From positions 253,789-317,788 of the forward strand of contig ML996706.1 in the NCBI GenBank assembly GCA_010356995.1: DNA of 64,000 nucleotides, written 5' to 3'. This document shows positions 21,084 to 23,639 of this stretch, in pieces (position 1 is the stretch's first letter; each line of letters opens with the position of its first letter). The notes beneath the pieces were generated by a model. It did not search any database. It had not been told where the DNA came from and worked only from the letters and a program-made list of their open reading frames with translations. Position numbers and translations under genes: made by a program. The stretch is from Trichodelitschia bisporula (lineage: Eukaryota).

Positions 21084-21681
21084 ACCGATCAGTTCTTCAC
21101 CACCTACACCTACCTTGCCCTACGGAACAAAGCTATGCAGATATGATCAGTCAACTTTATGCAGTGGGTTAGAGGGTGGTGAGGATGGCGGATAAAGCAG
21201 AACGGATAGCGAAAAAGCAGAACACGGTGCTCGCACTCTTAGAGAGAGGAAGCACCTTTCTACAGCGCGCAGCAACAAGGTAAAATGACCTTTGCAAGCA
21301 CACTTATGTGCAAAAAGAATCTCTCAGGGAGTGCGGCGGCGCGTAGTAAAGGTGTCGAGGGGTGGTATTGTCGGTGACAAGTGGAGTACTGGTGACGCGG
21401 CAAGCGGTTTTGGCGAGGCCCTGCCGCCCGGGCCACTGTTGTATTCACTCGATCGGCCCATATTTTTTCCATACGGATTACGTGTGCTCATTTTTGACTC
21501 CTGCTCTACTGATGGCCATGGACTGTAGTGCAGAAAGTTATTGCAGGTCGCAGGGCTCATTTTGCTAGCCGATGAAGAAGCGACTTTTACGGCGACCCCT
21601 CCGCGTCCTCGAACCAACCTTCAAAATCAGGACAGCCAAACTACCCCTTCTGTATCCAGACCACAGCTTGTATCCCTCAGC

Positions 21682-22121
21682 ATGGTAGCGACTAAAGCCG
21701 AAATTGTCCGCGGCTACCGACACCTCCTCCGTGGCGGTTACCATGCCGTCCAATACTCGACACCAGCACGCTACGTACTCCGCGACCGGCTGCGGCTCAA
21801 CTTCCGCCAGGGCAAGCCCGAGGACTTCGAGCGGTGGCGCGTGGACAACACCCTCGAGCTGCTTGCCAACGCGGCGAAGCACCACGGCCTAGAGCACAAG
21901 TTGGTACGCAGCCTGCTGATGACATGGTACTGGGAGCCAGTGCATTGGGAGGATCGCGGCGTCACGGGCTTGAGCAACAAGTGGGATACCCGCCCTATGG
22001 CTAGGAGCTTTACTAACGGCACAGAAACGGTTGGTCGTATCCGTTCCGGGCCCGAGCCTACGATAACTTCTACCACACTCTGCACATGCTGAACGAATCA
22101 ATGGGTCTGTGTCTGCGGTGA
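21682..22121 (+). CDS. Small mitochondrial LYR-like (DUF1763-type) protein
   Basis: IVRGYRHLLRGGYHAVQYSTPARYVLRDRLR, one intron near 21981-22024, C-terminus MLNESMGLCLR*. Confidence 0.75.
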
Positions 22122-22147
22122 TATCTGGTATTCGCCCCAACGGCGCT

Positions 22148-23047
22148 CTACATAAAATCCTCCTCATAGTCCGTCCCCCGGTCCTGATTGCTAGACGCTG
22201 CCACAGCGTCCTCGGAGAATAAATCGTCGTAGGCATGGTCACGCTGCCAGGCCTTCTGCTTGCGCTCCTTAGCCACGCGTGCCTCCTCCTTCTGCCGCGT
22301 CTGCTGGGCCGCGCGGTCGCGCAGCCGCAGCTCCTTCTGGCGGTCTTCGCGCTCCTGCCGCAGGTCTGGGAACTTCTCTACCCGTGTCTTGTTGAGCCGG
22401 TTGACGATAGGGTTTTCTCGCTGGACGACGTGGATGCGCTTGACCTGGGGAGTGTTAGAGGGGATTGCGGGGTAGGAAGGAATGGTGATGGTGATGGAAG
22501 GGTAGAAGTGCCTTTTTCTGGTCCTTGAAGCCAACCTGCCCGACAGCCATGCTGCCGTCCTTTTTCAGGTTCGACCACGGCGTGTAAATGACCACAACAT
22601 TGTCCTTCTTGTTGCCTATGCCTGTGAGAACCCTCCATAAAGCCCGTGACGCACGCACCCTCAATAGAATTCGCCTTCGTCAGCTGCGCGCAGTCCGTGA
22701 GTAGCTCCTCAGGGATGTTATCCCACGTCTGGTCCTCCTGTAGTCGCAGGTAGATATGCGCACTCGAGAGATTGTCGGCGTGGAACTAAAGCATCGGCAC
22801 ATGTATACTCGAGGGAGAAAGTGAACACCATACCCTTCACGCGTCATTAGCCCGCTACGAATGTTCACGCACTGCGTACCATACATCCTCCTCCCAGCCG
22901 TACTTGATTAGCTCCTCGTCTGTGGTACGTTAGCGGGGCTGGATTGTGGCGCGGGCATAGAGCGGGGCACACACTTTCCACTTTGTCTTTGCCGACGTAG
23001 ATGAAGGCCGAGGGCGTGACGGTGTTGCTGGTGAAGTAGTACACCAT
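22148..23047 (-). CDS. CCDC25: CCDC25/Jlp2-family NFACT-R (DUF814) protein
   Basis: MVYYFTS...[38 protein letters not shown]...[36 protein letters not shown]...EEDFM*. The model needs 5 introns, one of them GC-AG, and a 1-nt exon. Confidence 0.93.
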
Positions 23048-23639
23048 GGCTAGGTTATGTTTTTGGAAAGCTTGTGGGGATATTGTTGGTTACAAAGTGG
23101 AGTTGTTGCAGCGAGATGTTCGATGCGAGAGTTGGGCTTCACGTGAGAAGGCCTGCAAAATCGTGAGGCGGCGGCCAACCGGGATTTCAATGGGGCGGAG
23201 GTCGGCGCATTGCTTCTACAAAGTTGGAGCTTTGAGCAATAAATACAGCGACATACGGTGGAATATCATTTCAAGACGAATGACTGACACATCACAAAAA
23301 TCCTCATAAAGTTGCTCCATAGCTATTTGTGCTCCACATCAAGTCTGGTCAACATCAAAGCTAGGAACAGCGTTCCTCGCTTCGGACTATCAATCAAAAG
23401 CGTATGTCCTTCTGACTGTTCATAGATACCTCCCCACACGTCGAGCAGACCCGTTCAGCGGTTCGGCTCGTGGACCGCCTATGACGCGGGTGTAGAATCT
23501 CCACCGGTTGAATATGGTCTAACATCGAGCGCAATGAAGTCCCGCATCCGATGTCCATGGATACAAGATAGAGAGCTCATGTGGTATCATCTCTCGTAGC
23601 ATCGTCCTCTCGTAACATCAGCCCTCCATCCCCAATCCA

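Follow-up and report, generated by a model that had tools for sequence, protein, structure and literature searches.

How does a messenger RNA come to be 93 nucleotides (nt) shorter than its gene at a joint where no single canonical intron is 93 nt long? This question is raised by the CCDC25/Jlp2 gene of the fungus Trichodelitschia bisporula, which a taxonomy look-up places in the Dothideomycetes, order Phaeotrichales. The DNA studied is a stretch of 64,000 nt of contig ML996706.1 (assembly GCA_010356995.1, positions 253,789 to 317,788 of the forward strand), and the whole of this stretch is referred to as the window. CCDC25/Jlp2 occupies positions 23047–22148 of the window on the minus strand, with its ATG at 23047–23045. 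A first-pass annotation had proposed that two introns in this gene abut on an exon of a single nucleotide, G 22834. The coordinates and letters of both introns and of the G proved to be as it described, and the analysis supports with high confidence the view that G 22834 is a genuine, constitutively included one-nucleotide exon between two complete U2-type GT-AG introns. The site and the exons on either side of it are as follows.

22880..22919, minus strand: coding exon 2, 40 nt, ending in ...GAT GTA TG, the TG belonging to a Trp codon (RNA contig piece 22878–22919)
22835..22879, minus strand: upstream abutting intron, 45 nt, 5′ splice site GTACGC, 3′ splice site AAG, lying inside the 93-nt net skip
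22834..22834, minus strand: one-nucleotide exon, G, third base of the Trp codon (TG+G) of the DVWFH motif
22786..22833, minus strand: downstream abutting intron, 48 nt, 5′ splice site GTATGG, 3′ splice site TAG (GCTTTAG)
22659..22785, minus strand: coding exon 4, starting with TTC CAC and ending with ANSIEG, holding the NFACT-R_1 core (contig piece 22658–22784)

The junction was examined in contigs of four sequencing runs, X1 to X4, placed on positions 21900–23400 of the window. X1 and X2 are DNA runs from one sample and are possibly the source of the assembly itself. X3 and X4 belong to one other sample from another study, and their kind was only guessed as RNA. The contigs of X3 and X4 (1303 and 1254 nt, with mean word depths of 855 and 335, respectively) feature joints of 55, 93, 43 and 67 nt in CCDC25/Jlp2 and a 44-nt GT..AG joint in the convergent neighbouring gene. 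These joints are intron-sized and absent from the DNA runs; hence, the contigs derive from spliced RNA. At the site of the one-nucleotide exon, exactly 93 nt are skipped in both contigs (22784 to 22878, the position being ambiguous by 2, with the two ambiguous letters assigned by the aligner to the exon 2 side). The skip is neither the 94 nt of a frameshifting single intron nor the 99 nt of an upstream donor, and the mRNA thus reads ...GAT GTA TGG TTC CAC.... The contigs of X1 and X2 (word depths 424 and 219) contain no differing letters and no indels over the same region, and the same junction was found in 17 distinct metagenome sequences; the junction DNA is correct. Use of an upstream donor and an indel at the junction, the two outcomes that the first-pass annotation had set against its own proposal, were both looked for in the contigs and not found. 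Half-spliced or minor-isoform contigs did not occur among the X3 and X4 contigs, although contigs cannot show absence.

Gene models built for each splicing outcome agree with what the first-pass annotation had deduced about the reading frame. Removal of 22879–22786 as a single 94-nt intron causes a frameshift and truncates the product at 72 amino acids. When the first intron is kept, a TAG stop follows after 45 amino acids; when the second is kept, translation stops after 53 amino acids at the TAG of that intron's own 3′ splice site. Removal of both introns with retention of the G gives a protein of 213 amino acids with D-V-W-F-H restored, in agreement with the 93-nt skip of the RNA contigs. 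The upstream donor GAT|GTATGG gives an in-frame protein of 211 amino acids that is devoid of VW. The 213-residue protein is letter-for-letter identical to the NCBI protein of T. bisporula, so DVWFH is already present in the public model; this entry (P0001, 213 amino acids, named coiled-coil domain-containing protein 25) is also the best protein match. Membership of the CCDC25 family is indicated by a match to NFACT-R_1 above the gathering score and by full-length similarity to annotated CCDC25 proteins. Exon 4 alone reaches 39.3 bits against the Pfam profile NFACT-R_1 (PF05670; gathering score 29.8), and exon 5 scores 25.1 bits on the remainder of the profile. In an alignment of 20 homologues, F39 and H40 of the DVWFH site are invariant and D36 is nearly invariant.

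For the pre-mRNA spanning exons 2 to 4, all GT-AG or GC-AG introns of at least 20 nt were enumerated, as were all ordered pairs of them. No single GT-AG or GC-AG intron in this exhaustive enumeration yields the observed mRNA. The three possible single cuts of 93 nt have the ends GT..TA, TA..AG or AC..GT, and the only canonical two-step route to the observed mRNA is the removal of the 45-nt and the 48-nt introns, in either order. One base of the mRNA is not contiguous with either exon, and only G 22834 can supply it through canonical sites. Canonical sites flank this G directly, and both introns are complete and of workable length. The other RNA-confirmed introns nearby measure 43, 44, 55 and 67 nt, so that 45 and 48 nt are ordinary sizes here; an intron of 93–94 nt is about double. 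In the upstream intron, which terminates in GTGAAG, a branch-like GCTAAT is found 12 nt from the 3′ end. The downstream intron offers a weak branch candidate, CCGAT, within GCCGAT.

Several other kinds of arrangement were considered and rejected. A stwintron or nested intron does not fit, because the two-step GT/GC-AG solutions contain no nested route and consist only of two abutting, self-sufficient introns. A recursive splice site with a zero-nucleotide exon is contradicted by the sites themselves, which read AG|G|GT, with one base between them that is kept in the mRNA. A U12-type or other non-GT-AG single intron was discarded, as the possible 93-nt ends are only GT..TA, TA..AG and AC..GT. 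An RNA structure joining the sites was rejected as well: the predicted fold is less stable than that of shuffled sequences (z = +1.56; 193 of 200 shuffles were at least as stable). Origin by tandem duplication of GTATGG was dismissed, since the GTATGGT that in the window is common to the end of the exon and the beginning of the second intron is not repeated in this way in other loci. A 7-bp inverted repeat (GTGAACA/TGTTCAC, 22863–22869 and 22821–22827, minus strand) links the abutting introns and is probably due to chance.

In order to follow the site in other genomes, metagenome contigs were scanned with the 20-homologue alignment. A total of 473 stretches matched, 313 of them encode a relative, and the best 80 of these 313 were kept as loci, numbered with the prefix L. 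The state at the site was read from the DNA that lies between the codons for ...D-V/I and those for F-H. The two-intron layout TG|GTRNGN...YAG|G|GTNNGN...YAG|TTY was found in 20 of the 80 loci (17 distinct sequences), with upstream introns of 48–90 nt and downstream introns of 48–163 nt. One further locus, L021, is truncated and shows CAG|G|GTATGA...TAG|TTC. Three loci (L046, L050 and L077) have a single phase-0 intron, TGG|GT...AG|TTC, to which the downstream abutting intron of the window is the counterpart; such loci would be the expected outcome if the upstream intron is a discrete unit that was precisely lost. The site is intronless in 53 loci, and the searched peptide motif is missing in the remaining three. 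The conserved internal AG|G|GT that the first-pass annotation had proposed to look for is thus present in orthologous loci of several fungal classes.

The window and the 17 distinct metagenome sequences provide 18 orthologous intervals, some of which come from close relatives (L065/67/68; L016/73) and are not all independent. Each of the 18 contains one, and only one, AGGGT with 45 nt or more to either side, and such a site occurred in only 0.4–5.4% of the shuffles of each interval (0.004–0.054 per sequence). By this comparison, the AG|G|GT layout is not due to chance. None of the 18 intervals, irrespective of length, could be excised as one intron without a frameshift. In L065, L067 and L068, which are about 95% identical, the substitutions spare the branch motif TTCTAAC, the splice signals and the AAAG|G|GTATGT core. 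A CTRAY motif lies 5–27 nt from the 3′ end of the upstream intron in 16 of the 18 sequences; in the downstream intron it lies within 5–45 nt of the 3′ end in 11 of 18, including 4 cases at 43–45 nt. The weakness of the second branch site, remarked on in the first-pass annotation, is therefore real and a recurrent trait. A pair of cDNA and genomic contigs from one organism (at least 93% identity, with versus without introns) was not found among the 80 loci, so they yield no second RNA confirmation.

The taxonomic spread of the layout was assessed with a quick maximum-likelihood tree of 126 rows, built on the 213-amino-acid protein. Branch support was limited to the Shimodaira–Hasegawa-like approximate likelihood ratio test (SH-aLRT) and is weak at many forks; the class labels assigned to the references were looked up for five species. 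All 80 kept loci look pezizomycotine. The tree places L015, L026, L072/75, L079, L021, L071, L076 and L063 in the Sordariomycetes, with L016/17/73 as sister; L053/56 fall inside Penicillium and L037 at the base of the Eurotiomycetes group, while L013 adjoins Candelaria (Candelariomycetes) and L065/67/68 adjoin Trichodelitschia. Two loci that had remained unplaced long branches were assigned to the Pezizales by further protein searches: L058, whose 138-amino-acid exon shares 94% identity with a protein of Terfezia claveryi (Pezizaceae), and L059, whose exon shares 98% with the proteins of Wilcoxina mikolae and Trichophaea hybrida (Pyronemataceae). The three states of the site require at least 7 changes on the tree among 78 scored rows; parsimony cannot separate gain from loss. 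Since the layout occurs in the Pezizomycetes and in several leotiomyceta classes, the simplest account is that it arose once, before the Pezizomycotina radiated, and was lost repeatedly afterwards; the exon probably predates that radiation. From such an ancestral state, many lineages would have lost the two introns jointly, and a few only the upstream one. It appears less plausible that many classes gained this intron pair, one base apart, independently.

Two observations stand beside this survey. In L042 (about 1640–1730) and L048 (about 420–505), which group with Dothideomycetes references beside Dissoconium, Zasmidium and Septoria, both Trp-codon introns are absent and an intron is found 9 nt upstream (GAG|GT...AG|GAC ATC TGG TTC). 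It lies between the E and D codons and represents a discordant nearby intron position. The protein P0230, labelled as originating from the agaric Lyophyllum atratum and encoded on a 9.8-kb contig, shares 90% identity with the exon of the Pezizales-like locus L059 and has ...DIWY-FH at the junction in its model; it may be a contaminant contig or a mislabel.

Public gene models are frequently aberrant at this junction. Among the 64 NCBI-named proteins contained in 120 matches, 35 read ...VW-FH and 29 deviate: 12 are without exactly VW, 5 contain additional residues between DV(W/C) and FH, and in 12 the upstream part is different or missing. Of 188 further proteins from all sources, 120 are intact and 15 are without VW; extra residues occur in 11, 31 differ, the N-terminus is truncated in 9 and the motif is absent from 2. 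The VW-less models include those of Terfezia claveryi and Wilcoxina mikolae, and the nearest metagenome relatives of these, L058 and L059, carry the two-intron layout. Some Sordariales models are 90–95% identical to each other with the two-residue VW gap as the sole difference; VW is present in short cDNA-like contigs from this group. A predictor unable to model a one-nucleotide exon would find an in-frame escape in the exonic GTNTGG donor, which deletes VW. The VW gaps are probably misannotations caused by the micro-exon.

As for the mechanism, each of the introns of about 50 nt would be recognised separately by intron definition, the usual mode for short introns of fungi. In AAG|G|GTATGG, the 3′ splice site of the first intron and the 5′ splice site of the second are one base apart. 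Since a spliceosome assembled on one intron covers the neighbouring splice site, the introns are most likely removed one after the other; the same spacing would make exon definition impossible and allow no two spliceosomes side by side. Either excision leaves the other intron intact (TGG|GTATGG... or ...GTGAAG|GTTC), so no order is imposed by the sequence. Joining of GAT GTA TG, G and TTC CAC restores the Trp of DVWFH. The strong upstream branch site may favour the pairing of the upstream donor with its own 3′ end, by which the downstream acceptor, and with it the loss of the G, would be avoided.

Other explanations of the locus deserve comparison with the one-nucleotide exon. In one of them, the 93 nt are removed in a single step as one non-canonical intron with the ends GT..TA, TA..AG or AC..GT, and the internal AG|G|GT is irrelevant. 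The aligner indeed gives a single skip of 93 nt, contigs alone cannot tell which G or T stays, and no splicing intermediates were observed. However, none of the three end pairs is a known spliceosomal type, and the internal AGGGT is found exactly once in 18 of 18 intervals whose other intron letters differ, with a branch-like motif upstream of it and a GTRNG donor downstream. Moreover, precise loss of the upstream half has left three loci with TGG|GT...AG|TTC, and the fold of the region (z = +1.56) provides no stabilising structure. Removal in one step is considered very unlikely. An ordinary 94-nt GT-AG intron without any micro-exon would result if the assembly had dropped one G (true TGG|GTACGC; genomic TGGGTACGC at 22880). 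The mRNA would look identical in this case, and X1 and X2 may be the assembly's own reads, but the independently assembled contigs of X1 and X2 (word depths 424 and 219) are without an indel. TG|GT together with AG|G|GT also occurs in 17 distinct metagenome sequences from many samples, each of which would need the same error, and 94 nt is about twice the local intron size; such a loss of a G is highly improbable.

It is hardly credible that the functional mRNA arises from the upstream donor GAT|GTATGG and the acceptor TAG|TTC and encodes the 211-residue protein without VW. The model is in frame, and 12 of the 64 named homologues and 15 of the 188 further proteins have exactly such a form; yet the RNA contigs skip 93 nt and not 99, models of sister species about 90–95% identical differ only by the VW gap while cDNA-like contigs carry VW, and the locus that is about 94% identical to the VW-less Terfezia model has TG|GT...AG|G|GT. 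The remaining alternative, an idea already raised in the first-pass annotation, concerns the role of the site and presents it as a regulatory switch, in which skipping of the G by a 94-nt excision or retention of either intron leads to premature stops, nonsense-mediated decay (NMD) tunes the levels of CCDC25/Jlp2 and the layout has been kept for this reason. In its favour, each of the three alternative products runs into an early stop, several classes have retained the layout and the weaker second branch signal recurs. On the other hand, the loss of both introns in many lineages (53 of 80 loci) argues against an indispensable function, and stops arise from any intron retained in a coding region. 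The contigs contain no alternative isoform, which is weak evidence, as contigs drop minor forms. A switch of this kind is unlikely. The same holds for the broader proposal of an ancestral Pezizomycotina exon, the oldest and most widespread exon of one nucleotide known, that has been kept as a splicing-coupled dosage control via NMD, with the weaker second branch site setting the ratio of outcomes. Under that proposal, which we doubt, G skipping or stalling between the two excisions would produce frameshifted or stop-containing RNAs that are cleared by NMD.

A constitutive one-nucleotide exon between two complete introns remains the preferred explanation, and several points weigh against it. 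The data are at the level of contigs; neither splicing intermediates nor two lariats were seen, and removal of the introns one after the other is deduced from the logic of the sequence and from conservation. All RNA evidence stems from a single sample and study, and its RNA nature is read from the spliced joints; the DNA runs are not independent of the assembly if they are its source. The comparison of the metagenome loci turned up no mRNA of the same organism for any of them, and inclusion of the G there is judged from the conserved Trp. Within the window, the downstream intron is without a CTRAY branch motif, and both 5′ splice sites (GTACGC and GTATGG) deviate at position 6. Finally, the class placements depend on a weakly supported quick tree, on best-hit identities and on class labels that are provisional for several of the reference proteins.

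The remaining parts of the gene are as follows.

22975..23047, minus strand: coding exon 1, MVYYFTS...KVE, ending in phase 1 (gene model and RNA contig piece 22975–23065, joint 22919 to 22975)
22920..22974, minus strand: intron, 55 nt, GTGTGT...GCTAAC...CAG (55-nt skip in the X3 and X4 contigs)
22616..22658, minus strand: intron, 43 nt, GT-AG (43-nt skip in the RNA contigs, cut +1)
22512..22615, minus strand: coding exon 5, ending with KDQKK (gene model, Pfam and RNA contigs)
22445..22511, minus strand: intron, 67 nt, GC-AG, with the unusual donor GCACTT (67-nt skip in the RNA contigs)
22148..22444, minus strand: last coding exon, VKRIHVV...YEEDFM, with the stop codon at 22150–22148 (gene model and RNA contigs)

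The donor of the last intron (22445–22511) reads AAG|GCACTT. The position of its 67-nt joint is ambiguous by 3, and only the +1 placement is canonical (GC..AG). Relatives with an intron at this position (L013, L016, L049, L052, L065 and L068) use GT donors. The convergent neighbouring gene is located on the plus strand at 21529–22150 and has a 44-nt GT-AG intron at 21981–22024. A single RNA contig spans CCDC25/Jlp2 and this neighbour, and the 3′ ends of both transcripts appear to overlap, although a contig spanning two genes is no proof of one transcript. At the other end, the RNA contigs stop at 23053–23065, 6–18 nt upstream of the ATG, and one of them runs into adapter sequence. This suggests a very short 5′ untranslated region of CCDC25/Jlp2; the contigs cannot define the transcript start.

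Exons of one nucleotide are already known; the CCDC25/Jlp2 case is new and unusually widespread. A literature search, the coverage of which did not extend to subscription journals, found no paper on a micro-exon in CCDC25, Jlp2 or DUF814 genes. APC11 of Arabidopsis thaliana has a constitutive one-nucleotide exon, the base A, situated 333 nt into a 422-nt interval, and its authors argue for intron definition and for removal of the introns one after the other (Guo and Liu 2015, PMC4674806). Both the APC11 and the CCDC25/Jlp2 exons lie between GT-AG introns, are needed for the reading frame and coincide with wrong public annotation (PMC4674806). The APC11 exon was proven by minigene substitutions, whereas that of CCDC25/Jlp2 rests on contigs and sequence. 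APC11 is a plant gene with rice paralogues that have no intron, so that deep conservation of its exon was not shown (PMC4674806), while the CCDC25/Jlp2 exon spans fungal classes.

The nearest fungal parallel is the one-nucleotide exon of the cytochrome P450 CYP621A of Fusarium, described in one genus and in 20–24 genes, rarely expressed and called the first fungal case; it is supported by an alignment of orthologues and by RNA reads (Nelson and Syed 2026, PMC12940212). As in CCDC25/Jlp2, the host belongs to the Pezizomycotina, the core reads AG|G|GT, the G completes a codon of a conserved motif and the interval is about twice the median intron. The CCDC25/Jlp2 exon differs in that it belongs to a well-expressed, widely conserved gene and occurs in at least four classes, including the Pezizomycetes (PMC12940212). 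A long-read annotation of Coprinopsis cinerea lists 13 one-nucleotide exons in 13 genes, the omission of which breaks gene models; unlike the host of the CCDC25/Jlp2 exon, C. cinerea is a basidiomycete (PMC12230235).

Stwintrons resemble the CCDC25/Jlp2 pair in being found in filamentous ascomycetes and in consisting of a short complex interval that is removed by two consecutive U2-type reactions. DNA-level loss of one component intron likewise leaves a canonical intron, as in the phase-0 loci of CCDC25/Jlp2 (PMC5587772). In stwintrons, however, one of the splice signals of the external intron is split by the internal intron, so that the two reactions can proceed in one order only, and no exonic base remains between them (PMC5587772). 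The introns of CCDC25/Jlp2 are each complete and can be removed in either order, and a single base is retained in the mRNA.

Ratchet points serve the stepwise removal of very long animal introns; at such a point, a 3′ splice site directly adjoins a 5′ splice site and no nucleotide is kept. As at ratchet points, the first excision in CCDC25/Jlp2 would place the upstream exon directly against a functional 5′ splice site (TGG|GTATGG). Unlike them, CCDC25/Jlp2 keeps one nucleotide, and both of its introns are about 50 nt long. Recursive splicing is also named as a model in the Discussion of the APC11 paper (PMC4674806).

The case corrects the impression that one-nucleotide exons of fungi are confined to a Fusarium P450 (PMC12940212). 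It also points to a systematic error, shared by gene predictors and protein databases, in a protein family related to ribosome-associated quality control (RQC), and the AG|G|GT signature can be searched for genome-wide in order to find further exons of this size. The occurrence of both introns, of the downstream intron only or of neither at one and the same site makes it a clean case for the study of intron loss beside a micro-exon. The CCDC25/Jlp2 site is a natural, well-expressed and evolutionarily replicated substrate for spliceosomes that face splice sites one base apart, and with dozens of variants from different fungal classes, the order of intron removal and steric exclusion between spliceosomes are testable on it.

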